DNA of 64,000 nt, from contig CAITQP010000005.1 in NCBI GenBank assembly GCA_903894565.1, positions 28,971 through 92,970 on the forward strand, written 5' to 3'. The stretch comes from an uncultured bacterium (GTDB taxonomy: Bacteria > Patescibacteriota > Minisyncoccia > Phycocordibacterales > UBA9973). The first letter of the stretch is position 1, and each line of letters begins with the position of its first letter. The notes under the pieces were generated by a model. That model saw only the letters and a list, made by a program, of their open reading frames with translations, did no database searches and was not told the origin of the DNA. The translations under genes were made by a program, and so were the position numbers. Below are positions 14,358-44,122 of this stretch, piece after piece.

Positions 14358-14669
14358 ATGGAACAGGATACAGCATTTCTTGAATACGTAGTAAAAGCAC
14401 TCGTCGACAACCCTAATGATGTGAAGATCGAGCGTACCGTCGATGAGATGGGCGTGCTCGTGAAGCTCACCGTCAACCCCGCAGATATGGGCAAGATCAT
14501 CGGCCGCCAAGGCAACACAGCTAAGGCTATCCGCACATTGCTCCGTGTCATCGGCATGAAGAATAATTCGCGCGTCAATTTGAAGATCAACGAACCAGAT
14601 GGCGGTACAAAAGCTGCTGGAATCGAAGAGACTTTTGATGAGGCAATGGCTGATTTGAAGAACATGTAG
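14358..14669 (+). CDS. KH-domain RNA-binding protein (YlqC/KhpA-like)
   Basis: GKIIGRQGNTAKAIRTLL KH motif. Located downstream of rpsP as in the rpsP-ylqC-rimM-trmD arrangement. Stop TAG. Confidence 0.8.
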   Translation: MEQDTAFLEYVVKALVDNPNDVKIERTVDEMGVLVKLTVNPADMGKIIGRQGNTAKAIRTLLRVIGMKNNSRVNLKINEPDGGTKAAGIEETFDEAMADLKNM

Positions 14670-14694
14670 TTTTGGAATTAGGAATATTTTTGAA

Positions 14695-14724
14695 GCAAAA
14701 GACACCCGTAAGGGTGTTTTTTGC
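14695..14724 (+). terminator. Intrinsic terminator after the KH gene
   Basis: GCAAAAGACACCC-GTAA-GGGTGTTTTTTGC hairpin followed by a T-tract. Confidence 0.55.
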
Positions 14725-14810
14725 TTGTGTAAAAAAAATGGAATAGTTACAATAGTAATTATTACTATTATTCCTTGCGAACCGTAGGTAGGTTCACAAG
14801 TCAGTATGAT

Positions 14811-16145
14811 ATGAGTTTTTGGAATAACCCCGAAAATAACGCAGTAAAGGTTTTGCTTCTTGTTGTTGTTTTGGCGGGTGCTGGTTTTTTTGTGGTAAAT
14901 GGTGCTCATTCGGGTACTGGAAGTGCGACTGGTCAAGTTATTGTTGCTTCACAAACAAGTACACAATCACCTGCAGGAATGCTTCCTCCTGGTGTTGGAG
15001 CTGTTAATTCAATTGGTGTACCAGCGAATGCTCCGACTACGCCAAGTGGCTCGTCTACAACTGGTACTACTACTGGTGGTGGAGTAGGTGCTGGTACGAG
15101 CGGTACTGGAGCTACACCACCAACAGCAACTCTCTTTCCAGCGATTAATATTGGAGCAAATCCTACTGGATCACTCGCTTCTGCAATGAAGGTCTTGTAC
15201 GTTCAAGGAACGTCAGTCTTTGCAGGTGGTGTAGGCATCCGCGGACAGCTCGGTGTGGCTCAGAATGATGGGAGTACTGTCTCAACGAGCGCTCCTGGAT
15301 ATAACACTATCTATGTACAAGGCGTTCCTGTTTGTTTGAGAGATGGTTCAAACTGTCCTCAGTCAGGCGCTTCGATGGGATCAAATAATGCAGGTACAGC
15401 AGCTGCTCCTTCATCTGTTTTGCCTTTTACATCAAAAGGACCAGTCACTTCACAAGGAGCTTGGATTGGTTGGAATAATCTTACCGGTGGTACTGGTGAG
15501 ACAGATTTCATTAATAATAAAGGTGAGGGTACGGGAGGATTCGCATTTATGAATGGAGGCAATGGTAGTCCATCTGCACCATCTGAGAAAGTTCTCGGTA
15601 CGCTCGATGACACAGGAACATTGTCTGTCCCTGGTTCAGTAAATGCTTTGAACGAATCTCATTTTGGAGTTGGAGGAAAATATATCGATCCAGCTCCAGG
15701 TGTTCCAGTTGCATTGAAGGCAAATTCAATCGCGACAGGAAAATTGGTTGTGGATGGTGAAGTACCAATTATGCGTATTAACCCTGCTTGTTTTGAAGGG
15801 GACACAAAATGGTTTAATCCGTTTCCTATGCCTTTTGATTCAAATACTCTCTCGAATATGTTTATTGGTACGGTTTCTCTTCCGTTTCAGATATTAAATC
15901 AAGCCGGAATTCTTGCTAAAAATTTATTGAACGTAGTTTTTGGCGGAGGAAATAACTGGAACGACAGCATCTTGAAATCTTCAGTTATACTTACAACAAG
16001 TACTGGTTGTTATAACAAGAATGGAACATATTATAGTAATGCCGATTATGGAATTTTCGGGTTCGTTCTTCCTGGTATTCCACCAAAGAATGCTAGTACA
16101 GATATAATCAATAAATACACATTACTTGGTACGGGGCATAAATAA
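14811..16145 (+). CDS. Membrane-anchored Gly/Thr/Ser-rich low-complexity surface protein
   Basis: N-terminal hydrophobic anchor (VKVLLLVVVLAGAGFFVV), then long G/T/S/A/P-rich low-complexity region and a C-terminal globular part. No recognisable enzymatic motif. Start at ATG 14811 (ORF track starts 14775). Confidence 0.6.
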   Translation: MSFWNNPENNAVKVLLLVVVLAGAGFFVVNGAHSGTGSATGQVIVASQTSTQSPAGMLPPGVGAVNSIGVPANAPTTPSGSSTTGTTTGGGVGAGTSGTGATPPTATLFPAINIGANPTGSLASAMKVLYVQGTSVFAGGVGIRGQLGVAQNDGSTVSTSAPGYNTIYVQGVPVCLRDGSNCPQSGASMGSNNAGTAAAPSSVLPFTSKGPVTSQGAWIGWNNLTGGTGETDFINNKGEGTGGFAFMNGGNGSPSAPSEKVLGTLDDTGTLSVPGSVNALNESHFGVGGKYIDPAPGVPVALKANSIATGKLVVDGEVPIMRINPACFEGDTKWFNPFPMPFDSNTLSNMFIGTVSLPFQILNQAGILAKNLLNVVFGGGNNWNDSILKSSVILTTSTGCYNKNGTYYSNADYGIFGFVLPGIPPKNASTDIINKYTLLGTGHK

Positions 16146-22297: not shown

Positions 22298-22996
22298 ATG
22301 CATTTCTACGTTATAACACTATTTCCCGAAGCCTTTGATTCATATCTCAATGAGTCAATCATTGGTCGTGCAATCAAAGAAAAACGGATCAAAGTCACGT
22401 TTGTAAATCCGCGAATGTTCGTCTCGGGCAAGAAGTACAAACGCGTATGGCCTGACGGCAACGTGTCACGCATCGTGGATGATCGTCCATTCGGTGGAGG
22501 CCCGGGAATGATTATCCGCGCGGAACCTGTCTTGAAAGCGGTTGAAAGTATTGCGAAGAAAATTGCAAAAAAAGAGAATCGAAAAACAAAAATCATTCAC
22601 TTCAGTCCGAGCGGAACAAAATTTACAACGAGCTACGCGAAAGCGACCGTGAAGAAATATACCGATGTCGTTATGCTGTGCGGACGATATGAGGGGATCG
22701 ATGCGCGTGTTGCGAAGATATTGAAAGCAGAAGATGTTTCAATTGGAGATTATGTGCTCACGGGAGGGGAGCTTCCAGCGATGGTGCTCATCGATTCGAT
22801 GGCGCGCCAAATCCCTGGCGTGCTCGGCACATTCGATTCGCTCGAAGAAGAGCGTGTCTCGTCGAGCGAATTCTATACTCGCCCAGAAGTGCTCGAATGG
22901 AAGAAAAAAAAATATGCAGTGCCACCCGTCCTCCTCTCAGGCGACCACAAGAAAATTGAAGCATGGAAAATGGAACACAATAAAAAAGAACCGTAA
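22298..22996 (+). CDS. trmD: tRNA (guanine37-N1)-methyltransferase
   Basis: MHFYVITLFPEAF... SPOUT/TrmD motifs, 232 aa. Confidence 0.9.
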   Translation: MHFYVITLFPEAFDSYLNESIIGRAIKEKRIKVTFVNPRMFVSGKKYKRVWPDGNVSRIVDDRPFGGGPGMIIRAEPVLKAVESIAKKIAKKENRKTKIIHFSPSGTKFTTSYAKATVKKYTDVVMLCGRYEGIDARVAKILKAEDVSIGDYVLTGGELPAMVLIDSMARQIPGVLGTFDSLEEERVSSSEFYTRPEVLEWKKKKYAVPPVLLSGDHKKIEAWKMEHNKKEP

Positions 22997-23021
22997 TATT
23001 TATCTATTACGGTTCTTTTTT
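22982..23021. terminator. Bidirectional hairpin terminator overlapping the trmD stop
   Basis: AAAAAAGAACCGTAAT-ATTTATCT-ATTACGGTTCTTTTTT, between trmD (+) and the convergent gene 23028-23579 (-). Confidence 0.5.
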
Positions 23022-23027
23022 GATTTC

Positions 23028-23579
23028 TTAGAAAATGTTAGAACGATATTCGTCCTCTTTTGTAATCAAGGCGAGATAACCGTTTTTTAACATAAGGTTT
23101 TTTTTCATATCAACAAAAGGCCACAGGTATAAAAGTGCGTTCGCAATTGTAATACTTGTAATTACAAGAATGTGTACTTCGTCTCTCGAATTAAATGTAT
23201 CGAGACACAGGGTGAATGCTGACGTTGCTTCCATCCAGTAATCACTTGCCCGCATATCATTCATGTATTCAAGACGCTTGCCATTAGGATCCAAATCCAC
23301 GTTTATTTGGTTAAATAATGAAGTACCGGTGAGTTGATATCTTCCATTGTATCCTTGAAGCACTTCCATTGAGATTGTGAACAGAGGATCATTCGCTTGA
23401 CCTGTCAGCAAATGGGTGATAACAGGTGTTGATTTCGTAATTTTTCCAGCTAGATGATTTTTCGTTTCTAAATCTAGATTTTGCGGATTTACCGCGACGA
23501 TTGTTATTGTTGATTTTATCATTGGTACAAGTTTTGATACTTTATACAACATTTTTATAAATTTAGCAAGCATGGGCAA
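23028..23579 (-). CDS. Hypothetical protein (183 aa, C-terminal hydrophobic segment)
   Basis: ORF with no recognisable motif. Divergent from the Cys-rich gene. Confidence 0.45.
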   Translation of the reverse strand: MPMLAKFIKMLYKVSKLVPMIKSTITIVAVNPQNLDLETKNHLAGKITKSTPVITHLLTGQANDPLFTISMEVLQGYNGRYQLTGTSLFNQINVDLDPNGKRLEYMNDMRASDYWMEATSAFTLCLDTFNSRDEVHILVITSITIANALLYLWPFVDMKKNLMLKNGYLALITKEDEYRSNIF

Positions 23580-23627
23580 AAATAGTATTCACTAGAACAC
23601 GAACTGCGCTCATGGTACTGTTAGTGC

Positions 23628-23792
23628 ATGCAAGAAACACACACGTGTCGTATCTGCTCACATGACTTCGCTATAACCGAGGAGGATTTTGGATTTTATG
23701 AGAAGATGGCCGTGCCTGCGCCAACACTTTGTGCTGAGTGCCGTCAACAACGTCGCTACGCATGGCGCAACGAGCGCACATTGTATCGCTGA
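23628..23792 (+). other. 54-codon zinc-ribbon module (CxxC-x27-CxxC) ending at an in-frame TGA; apparent N-terminal part of the downstream Cys-rich gene
   Basis: ATG 23628: MQETHTCRICSHDFAITEEDFGFYEKMAVPAPTLCAECRQQRRYAWRNERTLYR-TGA(23790-23792)-TCDFCGK... Same frame as the 23820 ORF. Homologous to the C-terminal module of that ORF. Confidence 0.55.
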
Positions 23793-23819
23793 ACGTGCGA
23801 CTTTTGTGGCAAAAGTACG

Positions 23820-25319
23820 GTGACAATTTATTCTCCAAACAAACCATTCAAAGTATATTGTGTTCCGTGTTGGTGGAGTGACGGTTGGGATCCCGCAAGC
23901 TTCGGACGTGACTACGATTTCTCACGACCGTTTTTTGAACAATTTAGCGGGCTCCAACATGAGGTGCCACGCATGGCATTACTCACGAAAAATAGTATCA
24001 ATTCTGAATACACAAATCATTCCGGTGATAATAAAAATGTGTATCTTTCCTTTGCTGCTTTTGGATCAGAGAATGTATGGTACAGCACCTGGGCCATGAA
24101 GTCTCGTGACTGCATGGACTGTAGTTTTATTGCCGACAAAGGTGAGCGTTTATATTTTGTTTCTGATTCTCGCACTTCGTATAAGTGTCAGTACGGAATT
24201 TTCTTGAAAGACTGTTCCTCGTGTCACTACGTATACGATGCTCACGGATGTACTAATTGTTTTATGTCGTCGAATATGCGAAACAAGAGCTACATGTTTC
24301 GGAATGAGCAATGCACTCGAGAAGAATATTTTCAAAAAATGCAGGAAATTGATTTGTCTTCATTCGAGACGAGAGAAACATTGAGTGAAGAGTTCGAAGT
24401 GCTAATGGAAATTGGTTCCATACATCGTTATGTCGTTAGTGAGCGCAATGCTAACTCAATTGGGTCTCTTATGTACGATTGTAAAAACGTTACTGATTCT
24501 TTTGAAACAAACAAATGTGAGGACTCTAAATATATTTATGGTGGAATAGAAAATAGAAACTGCGCGGATATTTACCATGTTGGCTATAACGTTGAACTTT
24601 GTTACGAACTGCAAGGCTGTACTCGAGTGACGAATTCAGCGTTTTGTCATTTGTGCTACGACAATACGTTTTTGCAGTATTGTGATTCCTGCCAGAATAG
24701 TCAGAATTTGTTTGGGTGTGTATCGATAAAAAAAGGTGAGTACATGATTCTCAATAAAAAATATTCCAAAGAGGAATATACTTATCTTCGCGCGAGAATC
24801 ATCGAGCAGATGAAATCGACTGGTGAGTATGGTGAATTTTTCCCACCAAATATTGCACCTGTGTATTACAACGAAACACAAGGCGCACTCTATATGCCAC
24901 TCTCGAAAGAGGAAACGCTTGCTCGTGGCTGGCAGTGGGAAGACAACCTTCCAGGGACATACGGCAAAGAGACGGTCACTCCGGAGAATGTACCTGATTC
25001 GATTCTCGAGGTGTCAGACTCAGCGACCAAAGAAATTTATCGTTGCATGACGTGCACGAAGAATTTTAATATCGTACCTGATGAACTCGCGTTCTATCGT
25101 CGAGAAATAATTCCACTTCCGCGCCGCTGCCCTGATTGTAGATACAAACGTCGTTTTGCACTTCGTCCACCACGCAAGCTCTGGCCGAGGACATGTATGT
25201 GTACACGGACGAATCACGAACACGGAGATACGTGTCCGAACACATTCGAGACTCCATTTGCCCCCGAACGACCTGAACAGGTATTTTGTGAAGCGTGTTA
25301 TCAGCAGGAAGTGATATAA
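23820..25319 (+). CDS. Cys-rich multi-zinc-ribbon protein (about 28 Cys, about 4 CxxC-pair ribbons); no Met start of its own unless translation continues from the upstream segment
   Basis: 499-aa ORF from GTG 23820: ...CDFCGK..CVPCWW..., many CxxC pairs. C-terminal module CMTCTKNFNIVPDELAFYRREIIPLPRRCPDCRYKRR. Stop TAA. Confidence 0.7.
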   Translation: MTIYSPNKPFKVYCVPCWWSDGWDPASFGRDYDFSRPFFEQFSGLQHEVPRMALLTKNSINSEYTNHSGDNKNVYLSFAAFGSENVWYSTWAMKSRDCMDCSFIADKGERLYFVSDSRTSYKCQYGIFLKDCSSCHYVYDAHGCTNCFMSSNMRNKSYMFRNEQCTREEYFQKMQEIDLSSFETRETLSEEFEVLMEIGSIHRYVVSERNANSIGSLMYDCKNVTDSFETNKCEDSKYIYGGIENRNCADIYHVGYNVELCYELQGCTRVTNSAFCHLCYDNTFLQYCDSCQNSQNLFGCVSIKKGEYMILNKKYSKEEYTYLRARIIEQMKSTGEYGEFFPPNIAPVYYNETQGALYMPLSKEETLARGWQWEDNLPGTYGKETVTPENVPDSILEVSDSATKEIYRCMTCTKNFNIVPDELAFYRREIIPLPRRCPDCRYKRRFALRPPRKLWPRTCMCTRTNHEHGDTCPNTFETPFAPERPEQVFCEACYQQEVI

Positions 25320-25357
25320 TACAAGTCTACTAGCGTGCGTAGCGAGCTCTCTATTTC

Positions 25358-26725
25358 ATGAAAGTATTCATCTCAAGCATTGTTATTGTGTTCTTGATTG
25401 TCTCAGGGTATTTTTTGTTCCACCGCGCAACTGCGCCAAAGACTGCTCCAGCGCCTGCTGTTGGGAAAACGTCGTTTTCAGTTTTGATTGCTGTTCCGCT
25501 TCCAGGGTCGCTTTTGACGGCGACACAGTCAGTCGTCGCGATAGCGACGACGAATAGTACGCTCAAGGATATCGTTCTTCAAATCGATGGCATTACGGTG
25601 GCGACATGCACAACATCGCCGTGTTCGTATGATTGGGATACAACGAAGTCTGCGAATGGTAGGCACACCATTCTAGCAACGGCGAGCGACGAGACTCTGG
25701 CTGTCATAAAAACGGAACCACTGTTCGTTACGGTCAGCAATCAACCAGTCACACAGAATGCCACTCCAAAAAATACACCGGCCAAATCAGAGACCCGAGC
25801 AACACCCGTCGTGACGCATCCGATTGTGTCAAAACCTACACCAACCCCAGTACCGATTGTGCAAGTCAAAAAAGCAGGAACACCTGATCCATTGCCCACA
25901 ATCACGCAAAGTCCGCTCGTGAATGATTCGTCGAGCACAGAAATGCTTTCGTGGAAAACGAATGTGCCGACGACATCACATGTGCAATATGGTACGACGA
26001 GTTCAACGACGAGCACGTATCCAATGACGACACCTGAAGAGACTGTTCTGTCGACCGATCACACCGTCAAACTCACACAGCTCGTTGCTGGCAAGACGTA
26101 CTATTATCAAATCGTCGCGAGCGATGCGAGCGGACACGTGGTCACTTCGGCAGAAAAATCCTTTACGATTCCTGTGATGACGATTATGGCTATCACTGCG
26201 TCAGATTTGTTTGCGACGACGGCGACTATCAAGTGGACGACGAATTTTAAAACAGAAGGGCAGGTGATTTGGGGGCCGACGAGTTCGAGTGTCGGGCAGT
26301 ATAGTTATAGTACGGTGCAATCGAGTGATTTTACGACGGCACATACGGCCACAGTGACACAGGCGAGCGCGGGCACGACGTACTTCTATCGAGTCATCTC
26401 GATTGATTCTGCGGGCAACAAAGTCACCTCACCAGAGTCGACATTCACGACATCGAAGATTACGATTGGCTCGACTCATTATTCTGTGCAAGGGGAGACG
26501 ATTGAATGGCAGACGACGACTGCTGTCAAAAGCGAACTCAAGTACGGCACGCAGAGTCTGACGACGAATGCGTACCCATTTAACGTTACTGATGGCAATT
26601 TGGTTATTTCACACTCAACACTGCTTCCAGGAATAAGCTCAAACACGACATACTACTATCGCATCACAACGACAGATGCATCGGGTGTCAAGGTTACCTC
26701 GCCAGAGTATTCTTTCAACAGTTAG
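25358..26725 (+). CDS. Membrane-anchored surface protein with a bacterial Ig-like domain and three FN3-like repeats
   Basis: N-terminal TM anchor. Three repeats of the pattern W.T......V.YG.......H.V.L..L...T.YYY.V...D..G....S....FTT (purple-acid-phosphatase-N / FN3-like). Stop TAG. Confidence 0.75.
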   Translation: MKVFISSIVIVFLIVSGYFLFHRATAPKTAPAPAVGKTSFSVLIAVPLPGSLLTATQSVVAIATTNSTLKDIVLQIDGITVATCTTSPCSYDWDTTKSANGRHTILATASDETLAVIKTEPLFVTVSNQPVTQNATPKNTPAKSETRATPVVTHPIVSKPTPTPVPIVQVKKAGTPDPLPTITQSPLVNDSSSTEMLSWKTNVPTTSHVQYGTTSSTTSTYPMTTPEETVLSTDHTVKLTQLVAGKTYYYQIVASDASGHVVTSAEKSFTIPVMTIMAITASDLFATTATIKWTTNFKTEGQVIWGPTSSSVGQYSYSTVQSSDFTTAHTATVTQASAGTTYFYRVISIDSAGNKVTSPESTFTTSKITIGSTHYSVQGETIEWQTTTAVKSELKYGTQSLTTNAYPFNVTDGNLVISHSTLLPGISSNTTYYYRITTTDASGVKVTSPEYSFNS

Positions 26726-26754
26726 GGGATTAGGCTGTTTCCTCGAGAGAGATA

Positions 26755-26763
26755 TGGTATAAT
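26755..26763 (+). promoter_or_regulatory. Extended -10 promoter element TGGTATAAT upstream of the SWIB gene
   Basis: TGnTATAAT match, 45 nt upstream of ATG 26809. Confidence 0.45.
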
Positions 26764-26808
26764 GGCAGGAGTAGCATTTATTATAATCAGTAATTAAGAA
26801 TCAATATC

Positions 26809-27105
26809 ATGGCTGAGAAAAAAGTAGTAGCAAAAAAAACAGTTGCAAAAAAAGCAGGAGGAACATCTGCATTTATGAAACCAATGAACATCAGTGACGA
26901 GCTTGCGCTCGTTGTTGGAAAAGGCCCAATGCCTCGTTCAGAAGTAGTGAAGGCTCTCTGGGCTTACATCAAGAAGAATAAACTTCAGGATGAGAAAAAC
27001 AAGCGCAATATCAACGCTGACGACAAACTCAAGGCCGTCTTCGCAGGAAAGAAGGTCGTGAACATGTTCGAAATGACAAAGCTCGTTTCTGCACACCTTT
27101 CCTAA
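26809..27105 (+). CDS. Standalone SWIB/MDM2-domain protein with a Lys/Ala-rich N-terminal tail
   Basis: LALVVGKGPMPRSEVVKALWAYIKKNKLQDEKNKRNINADDKLKAVFAGKKVVNMFEMTKLVSAHL matches the SWIB-domain consensus. N-terminus MAEKKVVAKKTVAKKAGG. Confidence 0.8.
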   Translation: MAEKKVVAKKTVAKKAGGTSAFMKPMNISDELALVVGKGPMPRSEVVKALWAYIKKNKLQDEKNKRNINADDKLKAVFAGKKVVNMFEMTKLVSAHLS

Positions 27106-27122
27106 TCAGAGGCATGCGATGT

Positions 27123-27155
27123 AAAAACCACAAGAGGTAATCTCTTGTGGTTTTT
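27123..27155 (+). terminator. Intrinsic terminator after the SWIB gene
   Basis: AAAAACCACAAGAG-GTAAT-CTCTTGTGGTTTTT. Confidence 0.65.
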
Positions 27156-27190
27156 AGTTTTCGTTTAACATGCAGTGATACAGTATCAAT

Positions 27191-27499
27191 ATGAATATCG
27201 AAACGATCACTTCGCAAATCGATGACTTCATTTTGAAGCTTAAACCGGAAACGCGAGCTCGGGTGATTCGAGTCATAGAATTGCTCGAAAAATACGAAAA
27301 TAAGCTTGGCATGCCTTTCAGTAAAAGCATCGGGAATGCCTTGTTTGAACTTCGTATAATAGGAAAGGAACATATTCGCATTGTGTATTGTTTCCATAAG
27401 AATACTATTTTCTTACTTACTGTTTTTAACAAGAAAACAAGCAAGATTCCTCGATCTGAAATTGAACTCGCAAAGAAAAGAAGAAAAATGCTTGTATAA
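27191..27499 (+). CDS. Type II toxin, RelE/ParE superfamily (HigB/Gp49-like)
   Basis: 102 aa, ...SIGNALFELRIIGKEHIRIVYCFHKNTIFLLTVFNKKTSKIP... typical of HigB-like mRNA interferases. Upstream of an XRE antitoxin. Confidence 0.75.
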   Translation: MNIETITSQIDDFILKLKPETRARVIRVIELLEKYENKLGMPFSKSIGNALFELRIIGKEHIRIVYCFHKNTIFLLTVFNKKTSKIPRSEIELAKKRRKMLV

Positions 27500-27527
27500 C
27501 GTATATGGTATATGGTATCATATACAA

Positions 27528-27797
27528 ATGACACGATTTAAAAAAGTAAAAAAAATTGCACTCAAAGACCCCGGTACTCGAAAAGCATACAGAGAAATGG
27601 ATCTTGAGTTTTCGATAGTCAGCCAAATCATTGAAAAACGAATTCAGCTCGGATTGTCTCAAAAGGACCTTGCACTTAAAATTGGTACGAAGCAACCCTC
27701 GATTGCGCGATTTGAGTCGGGTACATACAACCCAACAGTCGTATTTTTACAGAAGGTTTCAAGAGCGCTCGGCGGAGAACTGAAAATAACCATATAA
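27528..27797 (+). CDS. HTH XRE-family antitoxin (HigA-like)
   Basis: LGLSQKDLALKIGTKQPSIARFESG helix-turn-helix, 90 aa, immediately downstream of the toxin. Confidence 0.75.
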   Translation: MTRFKKVKKIALKDPGTRKAYREMDLEFSIVSQIIEKRIQLGLSQKDLALKIGTKQPSIARFESGTYNPTVVFLQKVSRALGGELKITI

Positions 27798-27800
27798 CAA

Positions 27801-27823
27801 CTCTTGACTCTTGACTCTTGACC
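27801..27823 (+). repeat. Tandem heptamer (CTCTTGA) x3 creating three overlapping TTGACT/TTGACC -35-like hexamers upstream of rpoB
   Basis: ctcttgaCTCTTGACTCTTGAcc; a TAATAT -10-like hexamer lies 16 nt after the second TTGACT. About 190-nt structured leader before the rpoB ATG. Confidence 0.7.
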
Positions 27824-28008
27824 AAAAATAAGTAATATACATACCACTACGGACAGATTGAGTTTTAGCTGCGATCCGGAGCTTTAGTAGCTAAATTGGC
27901 GCTCCACGCCAAGGTGAACACAAACGAATAAACTGGATGATAGAAGCCCCGACGAAGGAGGAGGTTTCTCTCGTCCCATTTTTGTTTGTGTTCGCGGAAA
28001 AATAATCT

Positions 28009-31000
28009 ATGTCGATTCACACGACTGCGCGGCCAAAAAAGTACTTCCAAAAGTACAAGGCCCCGCTCACGGAGTTTCCGAATTTGCTTGAAATGCAAAT
28101 TCATTCGTTCAAAGAATTGGTCGAGAAAGGTCTCGGAGAAGTGTTCAAGGAATTTTCTCCAATTCCAGATTACTCGGGTAAGAAATTCCAACTTGAGTTC
28201 ACCTCGTTTAGTCTTGGTGAACCAAAGTGTGATGAGTTCTACGCAAAAGAGAACAAGCTCTCATACGAAGCTCCACTCAAAGTGCAGGTTCGTTTGACGA
28301 ACAAGCTCTCAGGTGGACAGGCAAAGGAACAAGAAATTTTCCTTTCTGATCTTCCAATGATGACGGCTCACGGTACGTTCATCATCAATGGTGTTGAACG
28401 TGTCATCGTTCCACAGCTTGCACGAAGTTTCGGTATTTTCTTCACAGAAAATGAATTGAAAGGCAAGCGATTTTTCGGTGCCAAAATCATCCCAGCACGT
28501 GGTGTCTGGATTGAAATTGATGCTGAAACAGACGGTGTTATCTACGTTCGTATCGACAAGAAGCGCAAATTCCCAGTGACTTCACTTTTGCGCAGTTTTG
28601 GCATGGTTTCAGATGATGAAATCCGAGCCGCTTTTACTGATCACGAAACAGCAGCCGCTGTTGTCGCGACCTGTCTCGCCAAGGACACTGCGAAGACTCC
28701 TTCAGAAGCAAACATTGAAATGTACAAGCGTCTCCGTGATGGTGACCTTGCAACAGCAGACAACGCGCGTGAATTCATCACGGCGCTCTTTTCAAAAGAT
28801 CGTTACGACCTTTCACCAGTTGGACGTTTCCGTTTCAACAAGCGCTTCAATCTCTCAATGGATGAGAAAGAACTTGAGCGTCGCACGATCTCACGCGAAG
28901 ACCTCATTCAGGTTATCAAGCACATCGTTGATCTCTCAAATACTCCAAATGCAAAGGCTGACGACATCGACCACCTTGCACAGCGTCGCGTTCGTTACGT
29001 TGGGGAACTCCTCGCCCAGAAAATCCGTGTCGGTATGACGCAGATCAAGCGTAATGTTCAGGACCGCATGTCGACTATCGACACTGCTGCTGCACTTCCA
29101 ATTCAAATCATCAACCAGCGTCCGCTCCAGGCTCGTATTAAGGAATTCTTTACGACCAACCAGCTCTCGCAGTTCATGAACCAAGAAAACCTCCTCGCTG
29201 AGGTGGAACATCTCCGTACATTGTCTGCTCTTGGACCCGGCGGTCTCACTCGTGAGCGCGCAGGTCTCGAAGTGCGTGACGTGCACACATCGCACTATGG
29301 TCGCGTGTGTCCAATCCATACTCCTGAAGGTCCGAACATCGGTCTTATTCTTCACCTTTCGATCTATGCGCGTATCAATGATTTTGGAATCATCGAGACT
29401 CCATACGTCAAAGTGAAGGATGGAAAAGTTACGAATGAAATCGTGTACTTGAACGCCCTTGAAGAAGAAAAGTACAACATCGCGCACGCTGCAGTTGCAA
29501 CAAATGAACAAGGTCTCATCATGGAAGAGTTTGTAGAAGCTCGTCTTAAGACTGAGCCAGGTCTCATCAAGCGTGATGAAATTCATTTCATCGACGTTGC
29601 TCCATATCAGGCATTCTCAATCGCAACAGCGATGGTTCCATTCCTCGAACACAACGACGCAAACCGCGCGCTCATGGGAAGTAACATGCAGAAGCAAGCT
29701 ACTCCATGTCTCATACCAAACGCTCCACTCGTGGCTACAGGTATCGAAGAATTCGCAGCACCATACTCAGGTCGTCTCGTTCTTGCTTCTGAAGCAGGTG
29801 AGGTTACCAAAGTTGATGCTCGTCATATCGTCATCAAGGGCAAGTCTGGCGTGAAGGAATATCCTCTCGTTAACTTCTCACGTACCAACAACTTCACGGC
29901 CTTTCATCAGCGCCCAGTCGTTTCAGTTGGTCAGGAAGTCAAAAAGGGAACATTGCTCGCCGACATGTCGAGTTCGGATAACGGACAGATTGCACTTGGA
30001 CAAAACGTTCTCGTTGCGTTCATGTCATGGGCTGGAAACAACTACGAAGACGCGATCATTCTTTCTGACCGTCTCGTGAAAGATTCAGTATTCACTTCGA
30101 TTCACGTTGAAGAATTCGTTTGTATCGTTCGTGATACAAAACTTGGACCTGAAGTTACGACACGCGACATTCCAAACGTTGGTGAAGGTAAACTCAAGGA
30201 TCTCGACGAAGAAGGTATTATTCGTATCGGTGCAGAAATTCGTGAGAACGATATTCTTGTCGGTAAGATCACACCAAAGGGCGAAACAGAACTCACTCCT
30301 GAAGAGCGATTGCTCCGCAGTATCTTTGCTGAAAAAGCACGTGATGTGAAGGACACTTCACTCCGTCTTGAACACGGAAAGCGCGGACGCATCATCGGCG
30401 TGAAAGTATTTTCTCGTGCAGAAGGTCATCAGCTCGAAAGTGGAATCATCAAGAAAGTTGTTATCGAAGTTGCTCAGCTTCGTAACGTGTCTGTGGGTGA
30501 CAAGCTCGCAGGTCGTCACGGAAACAAGGGAGTCATCTCAACAATCCTTCCACAAGAAGAAATGCCATTCATGGCAGACGGTACACCAGTTGATGTGATC
30601 CTCACACCACTCGGAGTTCCATCACGTATGAACCTTGGACAGATTCTTGAAATGCACCTTGGACTCGCAGCAAACTCGCTTGGCTACCAAGCAATCGTGC
30701 CACCATTCTCTGGTGCACGTGATACAGAAATCAAAGCTGAACTCGTCAAAGCTGGATACCCAGAAACAGGAACACTTCCTCTTTACGACGGACGCACTGG
30801 CGACAAATTCGAACAAGATGTTGCCGTTGGTATCATGTACATGCTCAAGCTGCACCACATGGTTGAAGACAAGATTCACATGCGCAGTATTGGTCCTTAC
30901 AGTCTCATCACGCAACAGCCACTCGGAGGAAAAGCTCAAGGTGGAGGTCAGCGCTTTGGAGAAATGGAAGTGTGGGCTCTCGAAGGTTACGGTGCAGCGC

Positions 31001-31224
31001 ACACCCTTCGCGAAATGCTCACGGTTAAGTCAGACGACATCATGGGACGTTCACAGGCCTTCGATGCCATCATCAAGGGTGAAGAAATTCCAATTCCGAA
31101 TACACCAGCATCATTCAGTGTCATGTTGAACTACCTCCGTGGTCTTGCACTTGATGTTGATTTGCAGAAACGCGGTACCGCTGGTCGAATCATAGAAGCA
31201 GCTTCGAAAGAGGTCGCTGAGTAA
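28009..31224 (+). CDS. rpoB: DNA-directed RNA polymerase beta subunit
   Basis: 1071 aa with conserved beta motifs (GRHGNKGV..., NMQRQAVP-like NMQKQATP). Confidence 0.95.
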   Translation: MSIHTTARPKKYFQKYKAPLTEFPNLLEMQIHSFKELVEKGLGEVFKEFSPIPDYSGKKFQLEFTSFSLGEPKCDEFYAKENKLSYEAPLKVQVRLTNKLSGGQAKEQEIFLSDLPMMTAHGTFIINGVERVIVPQLARSFGIFFTENELKGKRFFGAKIIPARGVWIEIDAETDGVIYVRIDKKRKFPVTSLLRSFGMVSDDEIRAAFTDHETAAAVVATCLAKDTAKTPSEANIEMYKRLRDGDLATADNAREFITALFSKDRYDLSPVGRFRFNKRFNLSMDEKELERRTISREDLIQVIKHIVDLSNTPNAKADDIDHLAQRRVRYVGELLAQKIRVGMTQIKRNVQDRMSTIDTAAALPIQIINQRPLQARIKEFFTTNQLSQFMNQENLLAEVEHLRTLSALGPGGLTRERAGLEVRDVHTSHYGRVCPIHTPEGPNIGLILHLSIYARINDFGIIETPYVKVKDGKVTNEIVYLNALEEEKYNIAHAAVATNEQGLIMEEFVEARLKTEPGLIKRDEIHFIDVAPYQAFSIATAMVPFLEHNDANRALMGSNMQKQATPCLIPNAPLVATGIEEFAAPYSGRLVLASEAGEVTKVDARHIVIKGKSGVKEYPLVNFSRTNNFTAFHQRPVVSVGQEVKKGTLLADMSSSDNGQIALGQNVLVAFMSWAGNNYEDAIILSDRLVKDSVFTSIHVEEFVCIVRDTKLGPEVTTRDIPNVGEGKLKDLDEEGIIRIGAEIRENDILVGKITPKGETELTPEERLLRSIFAEKARDVKDTSLRLEHGKRGRIIGVKVFSRAEGHQLESGIIKKVVIEVAQLRNVSVGDKLAGRHGNKGVISTILPQEEMPFMADGTPVDVILTPLGVPSRMNLGQILEMHLGLAANSLGYQAIVPPFSGARDTEIKAELVKAGYPETGTLPLYDGRTGDKFEQDVAVGIMYMLKLHHMVEDKIHMRSIGPYSLITQQPLGGKAQGGGQRFGEMEVWALEGYGAAHTLREMLTVKSDDIMGRSQAFDAIIKGEEIPIPNTPASFSVMLNYLRGLALDVDLQKRGTAGRIIEAASKEVAE

Positions 31225-41742: not shown

Positions 41743-41751
41743 TGCTATAAT
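41743..41751 (+). promoter_or_regulatory. Extended -10 promoter TGCTATAAT for the GT2 gene
   Basis: TGnTATAAT, 14 nt upstream of ATG 41766. Confidence 0.4.
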
Positions 41752-41765
41752 ACAAAAATACCCTT

Positions 41766-43013
41766 ATGGAGCAAGTGTTTAGCTTTATATTCTATATTTT
41801 CACCTTTCTCGCCGTTTACGTCGAGGTTTTTTTTCTTGTCACATACCTTGAGCGCCGCAAAGACATCGTTGTTCGACTCGATGATAAGCCCAATCGTGTT
41901 TACCCAAGCGTAACGGTTATTGTTCCGTGCTGGAACGAACAGACAACTGTTCAAGGTACAGTTGAATCATTGCTCGCGCTTGATTACCCAAAAGACAAAA
42001 TCAAAATAATGCTTGTTGATGACGGCTCTACCGATAATACATGGAATGTATTACAACAATTTGCGCATACTCCTAATATCGAAGTGATCCACAAGGAGAA
42101 TGGTGGCAAACATACAGCAATGAATCTTGGTATCGAAAAAGCAACAACAGAAATGATTGGTTGTTTGGATGCTGACTCATATGTAACACCATCCGCTTTG
42201 AAGCGAATGATTCCATATTTTGATGAGCCAGGTGTGATGGCGGTTTCTCCTTCGATTATTGTCAAAGATCCAAAACGACCGATTGAGTGGGCACAAAAAA
42301 TCGAATACCAGCTCTCCGTATATATTAAAAAAATGCTTGGGTTGATGAATGGTATTCACGTAACCCCTGGGCCATTCTCTATCTATCGTATCGAAGTATT
42401 CCAGCAACTTGGCCCGTACCGCGAAGCTCACAAAACTGAAGATATGGAGATTGCGTATCGTATGCATGAGGCTGGTATGCGTATCGAGCAGTGTCATGAT
42501 GCACAAGTCTTTACCAAGACTCCGCCAACTGCTGTAGCGCTGTACAAACAACGCAAGCGTTGGATTTATGGTTTTATCAATAACACTATTGATTATCGCC
42601 GTTTGATATTTAAAGAAAAGTACGGCGCGTTCGCGCTCTTCACGATTCCAGCAGGAGTTGTTTCGATTTTTTCCGCAATATATCTGTTCATTTTTATGAT
42701 CTATACGTTTGTAAAATTTATTACAAATAAATTTGTTCAATTTCAAGCCGTTGGCGTTCATGTGAGTACCGTTGTTCAACCACAGCAATTTAGCTGGTTT
42801 TATGTAAGTACTCAAGCTGTATTTCTCATCACAGTCCTTTTGTATGGATTCGTATTTACTTCGCTTATGATTGGTGCAAGGATGTCGACGGGGAAGTGGA
42901 AGCCGTCATTCGCCATGGTGTGGTATATCGCAATCTATAGTATTATTGCACCACTGTGGATTATGCGGGCTGTGATTAATACCGTGTTCAGACGTGAGAC
43001 GGCGTGGAGATAA
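41766..43013 (+). CDS. Processive family-2 glycosyltransferase (polysaccharide synthase; PgaC/cellulose/chitin-synthase-like)
   Basis: N-terminal TM, GT-A core with DDGSTD, DAD, and Q(R)xRW motif (KQRKRW), then 3-4 C-terminal TM helices. Confidence 0.8.
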   Translation: MEQVFSFIFYIFTFLAVYVEVFFLVTYLERRKDIVVRLDDKPNRVYPSVTVIVPCWNEQTTVQGTVESLLALDYPKDKIKIMLVDDGSTDNTWNVLQQFAHTPNIEVIHKENGGKHTAMNLGIEKATTEMIGCLDADSYVTPSALKRMIPYFDEPGVMAVSPSIIVKDPKRPIEWAQKIEYQLSVYIKKMLGLMNGIHVTPGPFSIYRIEVFQQLGPYREAHKTEDMEIAYRMHEAGMRIEQCHDAQVFTKTPPTAVALYKQRKRWIYGFINNTIDYRRLIFKEKYGAFALFTIPAGVVSIFSAIYLFIFMIYTFVKFITNKFVQFQAVGVHVSTVVQPQQFSWFYVSTQAVFLITVLLYGFVFTSLMIGARMSTGKWKPSFAMVWYIAIYSIIAPLWIMRAVINTVFRRETAWR

Positions 43014-43032
43014 CAGAATTAATTTTATATAT

Positions 43033-43716
43033 ATGAATCAAAACAATACAACAAATGTAGAACATGATACTGGCTGGTCAAAATACCTCGTTGTTTTTCT
43101 TATTACCCTTGGTATTTTTGTAACTATTTTTTATGTAAGTGATGTATTAACCAAGCGAAAACTCGCTGAGCTTAATACTATTCAGAATAATATTTCTGTA
43201 GACCTTCTTTCAGCAGAAACTCAGTATTCGCTCCTTGGTGAATTAGATTGTTCTCAGGTAACAAGTACGGTACTTTCTGACCAATTGAATGATCTTTCAA
43301 AAAAGATTGAGTATCTTGAGAATTCGAGTGGTAAATCTGACGAACTTACACAGCTTGAAAAACAATATTCATTGCTTGAAATTAAAGACTACCTTCTCAT
43401 GAAAGAGATCACGAATCGTTGTGGTCAGAAATCAGTTTTTATCTTGTATTTCTATACAACAAGTGACAACTGTAGTGAGTGTGTGAAGCAAGGCTATGTA
43501 CTTACCGATCTTCGACAAAAATATCCAGCGCTCCGCGTGTACTCATTCGACTATGGATTGAACCTCTCTGCAGTTGAGACACTCATCAAGATTTATGATA
43601 TTAAGGACACCGAACTTCCAGCGCTTGTGTCTGATAGGCAGGTGTATACGGGATTCCATAGTGTTGCAGATATCGAAAAACTGATTCCGAAGCTGAAGGC
43701 GACGTTGCCGAAATAG
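43033..43716 (+). CDS. Membrane-anchored thioredoxin-like protein with CxxC (CSEC) motif
   Basis: TM anchor (YLVVFLITLGIFVTIFYV), then ...VFILYFYTTSDNCSECVKQGYVL... resembling a TlpA/ResA-like fold. Start at ATG 43033. Stop TAG. Confidence 0.5.
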   Translation: MNQNNTTNVEHDTGWSKYLVVFLITLGIFVTIFYVSDVLTKRKLAELNTIQNNISVDLLSAETQYSLLGELDCSQVTSTVLSDQLNDLSKKIEYLENSSGKSDELTQLEKQYSLLEIKDYLLMKEITNRCGQKSVFILYFYTTSDNCSECVKQGYVLTDLRQKYPALRVYSFDYGLNLSAVETLIKIYDIKDTELPALVSDRQVYTGFHSVADIEKLIPKLKATLPK

Positions 43717-43831
43717 GGAACTAATGCACAGATTTGTACCTTAATATACTTTCTATTTGCTATAATAGAAGGGTCAGATGTCCTAGGGGGCTTCTATTGA
43801 CTTTTTAGTATAATTAAGGTATAATATAAGT

Positions 43832-44122
43832 ATGAATAATATCGAACAGTTCGTAGACGAGCTCGTTTCGGCAAAAGGGTTCGATGAAAAAGATCCTGAA
43901 GTCCTCGCAGAAATAAAACGCGGGGTAATGAGTCGTTTAGAAGATAGAATCAATGCAATGGTGCTCGCCAATTTGCCAGAAGATTCTCTTGATGATTTCA
44001 ATAAAGTTCTCGATGCTGATAATGAGGAGCAGATGATTTCATTCGTCAAAAAATACGTTCCTGATCTCGATGAAAAGGTCGCAGGCGAAATGCTTGCTTT
44101 TAGAAGTGCTTACCTAGGATAA
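43832..44122 (+). CDS. Small acidic hypothetical protein (96 aa)
   Basis: ORF with a ribosome-binding-like context; no motif recognised. Confidence 0.4.
   Translation: MNNIEQFVDELVSAKGFDEKDPEVLAEIKRGVMSRLEDRINAMVLANLPEDSLDDFNKVLDADNEEQMISFVKKYVPDLDEKVAGEMLAFRSAYLG

Follow-up and report, generated by a model that had tools for sequence, protein, structure and literature searches.

Between trmD and the RNA polymerase gene rpoB, six genes are found in the Candidatus Nomurabacteria-like genome (Paceibacteria, candidate phyla radiation (CPR)) from which the 64-kb stretch of contig CAITQP010000005.1 analyzed here (hereafter, the window) derives; its top rpoB matches, at 90% and 89% identity, are two Ca. 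Nomurabacteria metagenome-assembled genomes (MAGs). In order, the six genes comprise a minus-strand orphan gene (ORFan), a cysteine-rich multi-zinc-finger gene interrupted by one in-frame TGA (hereafter Cys-rich), a gene for a membrane-anchored Ig/FN3 surface protein, a standalone SWIB/MDM2-domain gene and a toxin-antitoxin pair (Table 1). We conclude, with a probability of roughly 0.72, that the interval at about 22997-27804 is a composite flexible region occupying an insertion-tolerant slot between two conserved Paceibacteria transcription units, and not a single mobile element.

A search with rpoB against one genome per Genome Taxonomy Database (GTDB) species yielded 80 loci, together with as much as 10 kb of the sequence upstream. 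In 62 of these, trmD lies upstream of rpoB, and the order rpoB-rpoC-dnaG-rpoD is then almost invariable. The distance from the trmD stop codon to the rpoB start codon at these 62 loci varies between 89 bp and 8.3 kb (median, 820 bp; 23 gaps are shorter than 500 bp, 12 are longer than 2 kb and 6 are longer than 4 kb), and that in the window is 5,012 bp. The trmD/rpoB junction is the one highly variable junction of the conserved trmD-rpoB-rpoC-dnaG-rpoD backbone, with gaps of more than 500 bp at 39 of 62 loci, as compared with 5 of 68 for rpoB/rpoC, 9 of 59 for rpoC/dnaG and 0 of 54 for dnaG/rpoD. The 135 open reading frames (ORFs) found in the gaps are mostly singletons, and the 57 Pfam families represented among them include PIF1 helicases, S24 peptidases, NYN, MsrA/B, ABC-2 transporters and IS200 Y1 transposases. 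We rejected the idea that the cargo shared by some distant genomes is secE-nusG-rplKAJL; the Pfam census lists no ribosomal-protein or NusG family. A scan of metagenome contigs with trmD added just two Paceibacteria loci (L088 and L090), in both of which trmD adjoins rpoB, its other matches being distant trmD genes with no rpoB inside the retrieved stretch.

Close relatives of the window differ at this site. One of the closest, L005 (rpoB 89% identical, typA 86%, trmD 80%), keeps the left flank typA-HlyD-FtsX-ABC-trmD and has a gap of 214 bp with no cargo gene. L004 (rpoB 90%) has a different cargo of 7.1 kb, composed of a SWIB gene, an IS30-like transposase (HTH_38 and rve domains), an alpha/beta hydrolase and seven ORFs that match no family; the SWIB gene, 75% identical to that of the window, is the sole item in common. 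Two contigs found by means of the Cys-rich protein, L084 and L085, are both closer to the window than is L005. In L084 (typA, FtsX and trmD 97% identical in amino acid sequence, ~81% in DNA), trmD is followed by the ORFan, an intact Cys-rich gene and the Ig/FN3 gene, within which the contig ends, and in L085 (typA 92%) it is followed, after 70 nt, by Cys-rich (79%), with no ORFan. Cys-rich is thus present at the site in three contigs and the ORFan in two, SWIB is shared with L004 alone, and the toxin-antitoxin pair occupies the trmD/rpoB slot in none of the other loci examined.

These data bear directly on the original prediction, made from the sequence of the window, which described the interval as an accessory island of non-housekeeping genes without an integrase, bounded by hairpin terminators. 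Its reading of the block as accessory and variable survives because relatives do not share this set and order of genes in the interval: L005 is empty, L004 has other cargo and the 62 species have mostly unique ORFs. The genes and the two hairpins that it listed are all present, SWIB does have an extended -10 element and a terminator-like hairpin of its own, and no integrase is encoded by the ORFs of the block. The idea of one island had to be given up, as the modules differ in distribution and the block is instead a composite of at least four. Of the two proposed borders, the left one is a hairpin, as predicted, but the right one is the rpoB promoter, the second hairpin being internal to the block.

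The left edge of the slot is a terminator-like hairpin that overlaps the trmD stop codon, has an A-run ahead of it and a T-run behind it, and is common to trmD and the convergent ORFan. It folds with -20.3 and -20.7 kcal/mol on its two strands (z about -7.5). The hairpin downstream of SWIB separates this gene from the toxin-antitoxin pair and is not a border. Both hairpins are predicted to be intrinsic (Rho-independent) terminators, as each combines a stable stem with a T-run at the 3' end of a gene. The right edge lies at about 27805-27838, where the predicted rpoB promoter consists of three overlapping TTGAC boxes (27802-27824) and a TAATAT -10 element (27833-27838). The conserved left transcription unit, typA-nitroreductase-HlyD-FtsX-ABC-trmD, is therefore predicted to end at the bidirectional terminator, and the right unit, rpoB-rpoC-dnaG-rpoD, to start with its own promoter and leader. 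In L005, the rpoB -35 box begins 14 nt past the stop codon of trmD and is not separated from it by a terminator hairpin (L005:8403-8424), so that read-through from trmD into rpoBC may be the default state of an empty slot.

Table 1. Features of the trmD-rpoB interval and its borders (positions in the window; GC, guanine-plus-cytosine content; aa, amino acids)
Feature	Position	Strand	GC	Details
trmD	22298..22996	+		PF01746, 126 bits; last gene of conserved left flank
Recombination tract	22860..23900			1,041 nt, 97.5% identical to L084, 26 differences
Bidirectional terminator-like hairpin	22981..23022	both		perfect 17-bp arms (17-18 bp), 6-nt loop
ORFan	23028..23579	-	0.36	183 codons; one predicted hydrophobic helix
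Cys-rich multi-zinc-finger (treble-clef) gene	23628..25319	+	0.43	563 codons; one in-frame TGA
In-frame TGA, codon 55 of Cys-rich	23790..23792	+		CGA-to-TGA nonsense substitution
Extended -10 element TGATATAAT	25312..25320	+		38 nt upstream of Ig/FN3 start codon; predicted promoter
Ig/FN3 membrane-anchored surface protein	25358..26725	+	0.49	N-terminal hydrophobic anchor, Big_7, three FN3-like (Pur_ac_phosph_N) repeats
Extended -10 element TGGTATAAT	26755..26763	+		perfect match, for SWIB; predicted promoter
Standalone SWIB/MDM2-domain protein	26809..27105	+	0.43	98 aa; PF02201, 105.7 bits, profile positions 1-74 of 74
Terminator-like hairpin after SWIB	27122..27156			15-bp perfect arms, 5-nt loop, T-run; -24.5 kcal/mol, z -6.3
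Gp49/HigB-like toxin (RelE/ParE superfamily)	27191..27499	+	0.36	102 aa; PF05973, 80 bits (cutoff 23.9), profile positions 1-90 of 90; phrog_2523, 1e-24
HTH_3 (XRE/HigA-like) antitoxin	27528..27797	+	0.39	89 aa; PF01381, 53 bits
rpoB promoter and structured ~170-nt leader	27802..28008	+		promoter scan; conserved with L004 and L005
rpoB	28009..31224	+		first gene of conserved right flank rpoB-rpoC-dnaG-rpoD

Comparison with L084 revealed a mosaic of identities across the left half of the block. The backbone of the two contigs has a mean identity of 0.81 per 100-nt window, yet a tract that covers the 3' end of trmD, the hairpin, the ORFan and ~90 codons at the 5' end of Cys-rich is nearly identical (Table 1), with no difference at all over 22860-23100. 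Just downstream, at 23972-24600, identity with L084 falls to 0.47-0.63 (45-50% in amino acids). In this middle domain of Cys-rich, the L084 allele classes with homologs P0030 (78%) and P0015 and P0041 (69%), and the window has the majority class (86% identity to P0001). At least two allele classes are shuffled among the orthologs in this domain, and the L084 allele has 9 cysteines in 200 residues, as compared with 12. Homologous recombination with other lineages would be expected to leave just such a pattern, near-identity next to a replaced allele, and these sequences point to such an event. Within the tract, the ORFan has a synonymous divergence (dS) of 0.014 between the window and L084, against 0.55-1.7 for the flanking genes.

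Signs of a site-specific mobile element were sought across the interval. No ORF of 22997-27804 matches an integrase or recombinase domain in Pfam, the nearest tRNA is at 47.6 kb, and flanking direct repeats or attachment (att) sites are limited to A-rich matches of 12-14 nt at chance level. The block therefore lacks the features that define an integrase-mediated island, namely an integrase and att repeats or a tRNA. Composition, which the original prediction had proposed as a check, gives a divided answer. The ORFan, toxin and antitoxin (GC, 0.36-0.39) fall below the window gene mean of ~0.45, but the other three genes are near native and the tetranucleotide (4-mer) distance of the block is raised only mildly and is no outlier, so that the interval would not stand out by composition alone.

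The distributions of the individual genes also differ outside this site. Pfam, PHROG and PADLOC profiles were run on the ORFs of the block, and the toxin-antitoxin genes were the only ones with PHROG matches. In this pair the toxin comes first, with a spacer of 28 nt between its stop codon and the antitoxin, the start of which is most likely at 27528, in agreement with the public gene call. Pairs built in the same way (102 aa, 28 nt, 89 aa) lie among differing housekeeping genes on other contigs (L163-L166); in L165 and L166, for instance, ruvX and a tRNA-binding-domain gene flank the pair, and in L163 S1/KH genes adjoin it. The pair is therefore a portable two-gene cassette. Its nearest toxin homologs are at most 64% identical (60-64%), some of them named from Peregrinibacteria and Gracilibacteria. 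The pair resembles HigB/HigA-type modules (Gp49 PF05973 plus an XRE helix-turn-helix) in its toxin-first order, its proteins of ~100 and ~90 aa, its short spacer and its Pfam domains, as well as in its patchy distribution and variable insertion sites; the likeness is one of sequence, and the pair differs in that its nearest relatives are just 60-64% identical.

SWIB belongs to a very common family (5,063 related representative clusters). The Ig/FN3 gene, which starts 38 nt past the Cys-rich stop codon in the same orientation, is fast-evolving, because its product is 70% identical to the L084 copy while those of the adjacent backbone genes are 97% identical. The extended -10 elements ahead of these two genes are among only four TGnTATAAT sites in the 64 kb, all on the + strand and 15-70 nt upstream of a start codon. 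The other two perfect matches (TGCTATAAT), at 41743-41751 and 43758-43766, precede genes that start at 41766 and 43832, and promoters of this extended -10 type seem to be usual here for genes that are transcribed independently. Since the Ig/FN3 gene has a promoter element of its own, a polar effect of the Cys-rich TGA on it would not be expected.

The ORFan matched nothing in Pfam, PHROG or PADLOC, and a homolog search recovered one cluster among 5.8 billion proteins, the sister copy in L084 (P0121, about 93-94% identical), so that it is truly lineage-restricted. In the L084 copy a 1-nt indel lies ahead of Met20 (23522), and this codon is therefore most likely the true start, giving a protein of 164 aa. 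About 11 of the ~12 substitutions between the two copies alter the amino acid (ratio of nonsynonymous to synonymous divergence, dN/dS, about 2), and there is therefore no sign of purifying selection since the copies in the window and L084 split. The AlphaFold2 (AF2) model of the ORFan was unusable (predicted local distance difference test, pLDDT, 38.0).

Cys-rich presents a different picture. Its homologs number 6,703, of which the 120 best are 63-78% identical along the full ~563 aa, with names from Nomurabacteria, Minisyncoccia and 'Patescibacteria group'. Identity to P0001 is 78% at 100% coverage, and the cysteine columns of the alignment are invariant. Domain searches indicate treble-clef fingers at both ends (zf_Tbcl at the N-terminus, and zf_Tbcl_2) together with weak LIM matches. 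Cys-rich is thus an ortholog in a strongly conserved, unnamed, Patescibacteria-wide family and no orphan, and its domain content invites the guess that it has a zinc-dependent nucleic-acid- or protein-binding role. A profile of the family found no relative among Protein Data Bank (PDB) sequences, and an AF2 model from a 30-sequence alignment was unusable (mean pLDDT, 49.8). Homologs in other genomes sit in unrelated contexts, for example beside FAD synthetase and methyltransferase genes (L002) or alone (L085 and L022). The family also forms tandem paralog arrays, with four copies after rpoC in L019 (12080-18337); L002:10001-14106 holds the ortholog and a 35% identical paralog with the methyltransferase gene between them, and in L022 (8018-9763) a 36% identical paralog occupies the trmD/rpoB slot. 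The original listing of Cys-rich among the non-housekeeping genes of an accessory block is consequently not borne out.

Taken together, these findings suggest a model in which four or more separate modules, the majority equipped with their own promoter or terminator signals, would have entered the slot or been remodelled there at different times: the low-GC ORFan on the opposite strand; the TGA-interrupted zinc-finger copy followed by the fast-evolving Ig/FN3 gene with its own extended -10 element; the SWIB gene, placed between a predicted promoter and a predicted terminator of its own; and the low-GC HigB(Gp49)/XRE toxin-antitoxin cassette. We propose that, once DNA has been taken up, homologous recombination in the conserved flanks is the main route by which cargo may enter or be exchanged, because of the near-identical tract and the swapped allele together with the lack of an integrase and att sites; insertion sequence (IS) elements may be involved occasionally, and a site-specific integrase would not be. 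Most of the donors would be fellow Patescibacteria, and this would account for a composition so close to native. It is also possible, although we hold this more tentatively and would not count on it, that trmD/rpoB is a class-wide, integrase-independent site of cargo exchange in which the 3' end of trmD and the rpoB promoter and leader (with the GATTGAGT motif) serve as homology anchors for cassette swaps after DNA uptake, and that the 1-kb tract shared with L084 is one very recent swap.

Several points weigh against the composite, recombination-driven origin proposed here. The evidence for homologous recombination consists of one tract and one allele swap, and the mechanism is deduced from them. 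The L084 contig stops inside the Ig/FN3 gene, so the comparison with this sister covers the left half of the block, and all of the comparison genomes are metagenome assemblies. The 4-mer distances of the block (z from -0.1 to +2.0) stay below the maximum of the window, and for half of the block a foreign origin is not supported by composition. Finally, the direction of change, gain here as opposed to loss in L005, is taken from parsimony over outgroups and not from a resolved tree.

Other explanations of the block can be weighed against the same data. There is an outside chance that the genes are ancestral and native and were deleted in relatives such as L005, in which case the block would not be accessory at all; Cys-rich is a member of a conserved family and follows trmD in three related contigs, L004 has SWIB in the same slot, and the composition is near native. 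Many independent deletions would be needed, however. In the majority of the 62 outgroup species the gap is short or filled with unrelated cargo, Cys-rich orthologs occur elsewhere in unrelated contexts (L002), the only homolog of the ORFan is that of the sister species, and the closest relatives of the cassette, at most 64% identical, are at other loci. A single arrival of the whole block, as one horizontally acquired island, degraded prophage or integrative element, has a still smaller chance of being correct. The block is contiguous and absent from L005, and both an ORFan and a toxin-antitoxin pair with phage-family matches are present, but integrase, att-like direct repeat and tRNA are all missing and GC is heterogeneous, from 0.36 to 0.49. 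Moreover, the parts differ in phyletic pattern (Cys-rich in L084 and L085, the ORFan in L084, SWIB in L004, and the toxin-antitoxin pair nowhere else at the site), Ig/FN3 and SWIB are each preceded by an extended -10 element, and SWIB is parted from the toxin-antitoxin genes by an internal terminator-like hairpin.

It is very unlikely that the genes constitute one functional system, such as a surface-variation or defence locus. Five of the six are co-oriented with short spacers, and Cys-rich adjoins Ig/FN3 in both the window and L084, but no conserved co-occurrence was found (the contexts of Cys-rich homologs in L002, L019, L085 and L022 differ), no PADLOC system matched, and Ig/FN3 and SWIB have separate promoter elements, SWIB with a terminator-like hairpin as well. 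As the source is a metagenome assembly, a chimeric join or a binning artefact might also be considered, to which we give next to no weight: the block is real and not an assembly join, because L001 (Logan ERR4193932), a separate assembly, is 100% identical to the window over 15,938 bp from typA into rpoB, TGA included, and L084 has the left half in the same order. A composite flexible region thus remains the reading that we favor.

The TGA in Cys-rich aligns with an arginine in 20 of 20 homologs (context LYRRNCDLCGKS). The codon is CGA in both L084 and L085, and the 33 nt surrounding it are identical between the window and L084; the TGA allele is found in L001 and in further records. The TGA is a very recent C-to-T nonsense change at a near-invariant Arg, one that postdates the recent recombination event, because its 33 flanking nt are identical to those of L084, which has CGA. 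Selenocysteine insertion or another recoding was rejected as an explanation of this codon, given the near-invariant Arg position and the CGA of the sister.

Stop codon usage in this lineage is unusual in itself. None of the 57 genes on the contig, including those of a stretch beyond the window start (L167), ends in TGA (49 end in TAA and 8 in TAG), TGA stops are absent from the long ORFs of L005, and in L084 and L085 they are limited to minus-strand ORFs that are short (83-84 aa) and overlap with others. Three long ORFs in the window that do end in TGA are spurious, two being antisense to dnaG and rnhB and the third lying opposite the toxin gene and the 3' end of SWIB. Avoidance of TGA stops is strong in the sub-lineage of the window, and a search of the literature on release factor 2 (RF2) or stop codon usage in Parcubacteria and Nomurabacteria returned nothing relevant. 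The absence of TGA stops raised the idea that TGA is not a stop codon here, which is weakened by the FtsX ortholog of L004, as this gene terminates with TGA. Because so close a relative (rpoB, 90%) uses TGA in this way, we give very little credence to the notion that the lineage no longer uses UGA as a stop and that Cys-rich would be translated through it.

Decoding of the TGA in the broader sense, by selenocysteine, reassigned or unassigned UGA or programmed readthrough, with the gene intact, seems equally far-fetched. Besides the absence of TGA stops from the contig genes, the L005 long ORFs and the supported ORFs of L084 and L085, it could draw on the presence of the allele in several assemblies and on the undamaged remainder of the gene. 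It is contradicted by the alignment of the codon with a near-invariant Arg, by the sister CGA within 33 identical flanking nt, by the lack of any other in-frame TGA in a real gene of the window and by the TGA at the end of the L004 FtsX gene. A short hairpin past the TGA is explained by the conserved coding sequence for CDFCGKS and is absent in L085. A nonsense mutation therefore remains the preferred account of this codon.

The right border of the slot has further features of note. The rpoB -35 box of the window is triplicated as a 7-nt tandem repeat (CTCTTGA x3, 27802-27824), with one of the three copies properly spaced from the -10 element; L004 and L005 have a single TTGAC. The triplication may have resulted from replication slippage at the junction of island and promoter. 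Downstream, the rpoB 5' leader (27840-28011) folds unusually well (-60.9 kcal/mol, z -5.7), with a long hairpin (27916-27928 paired with 27981-27993) that encloses a terminator-like GACGA..TCGTC stem and a T-run just before the rpoB start. A GATTG[A/T]GT motif, present in the window at 27858-27865, occurs 100-290 nt upstream of rpoB in 54 of the 80 Paceibacteria loci, as compared with a chance expectation of ~0.05 per locus. Its flanks often pair when judged by eye; RNAalifold found no consensus pairs in an alignment of the motif regions, and Rfam gave no match. The motif could be a conserved 5' untranslated region (5'-UTR) element or an operator of the rpoBC operon.

Elsewhere on the contig, the stretches at 14-16 kb (14500-16000) and 42-44 kb deviate more than the block in GC or 4-mer composition (z 2.2-2.7), the latter including a gene at 42994-43716 with a GC of 0.37. 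Further genes that were acquired or are otherwise unusual may lie in the stretches 14500-16000 and 42000-44000. The same contig also encodes, some 4 kb outside the window on the side of its start, a 977-aa Peptidase_S74 protein (phage tail-fibre chaperone-type) between gyrB and pheT (L167:14249-17182).

The block marks the place at which a CPR genome that is very small and dense in genes tolerates extra DNA and exchanges it, directly upstream of the promoter of its RNA polymerase operon. Flexible regions of this sort are recognizable by synteny even where composition-based island finders would miss them. For uncultured Nomurabacteria, the block also supplies a specific instance of recent recombination between species, and it records the inactivation, very recent and datable, of a Patescibacteria protein that is strongly conserved but uncharacterised. 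Flexible genome regions of this type are already known; the block is a clean and ordinary one and leaves current understanding unchanged.

Bacterial pangenomes are known to contain flexible genomic islands, or integration 'hotspots', with conserved core genes on either side; they turn over frequently, often carry no self-mobility genes and show signs of homologous recombination through their flanks. The trmD-rpoB block has the hotspot features that we examined, with different content between the same flanks, the most variable junction of its backbone, differences even among the closest relatives and signs of exchange by a deduced mechanism. It is alike in that the same core flanks, trmD and rpoB, enclose differing and mostly unique cargo in dozens of species. 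It differs from pangenome hotspots in that it is found in ultra-small Patescibacteria across a class-level clade and not among strains of one species, in that the slot is very small and directly abuts the rpoB promoter, and in that its cargo is partly a relocated member of a conserved family and not purely accessory.

Within the same phylum, the retrieved passages of a study of groundwater Patescibacteria (PMC12455944, mSystems 2025) report hundreds of genomic islands, predicted by composition with IslandViewer, as well as gene-by-gene transfer, including the horizontal transfer of SWIB/MDM2 genes almost exclusively between Patescibacteria. A SWIB gene in the trmD/rpoB slot fits the transfers reported in those passages, and L004 (nzgw482) is probably from the same MAG collection, judging by the shared 'nzgw' isolate prefix. 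Unlike the islands described in those passages, the block in the window deviates barely in composition and was recognized by synteny, and the passages of PMC12455944 retrieved by keyword do not mention the trmD/rpoB junction. Genomic islands and SWIB transfer in Patescibacteria are thus already described; what is new is the location, between trmD and rpoB and right beside the promoter of the latter, the fact that this slot stays variable throughout a class-level clade, and a single clear tract of recent recombination.

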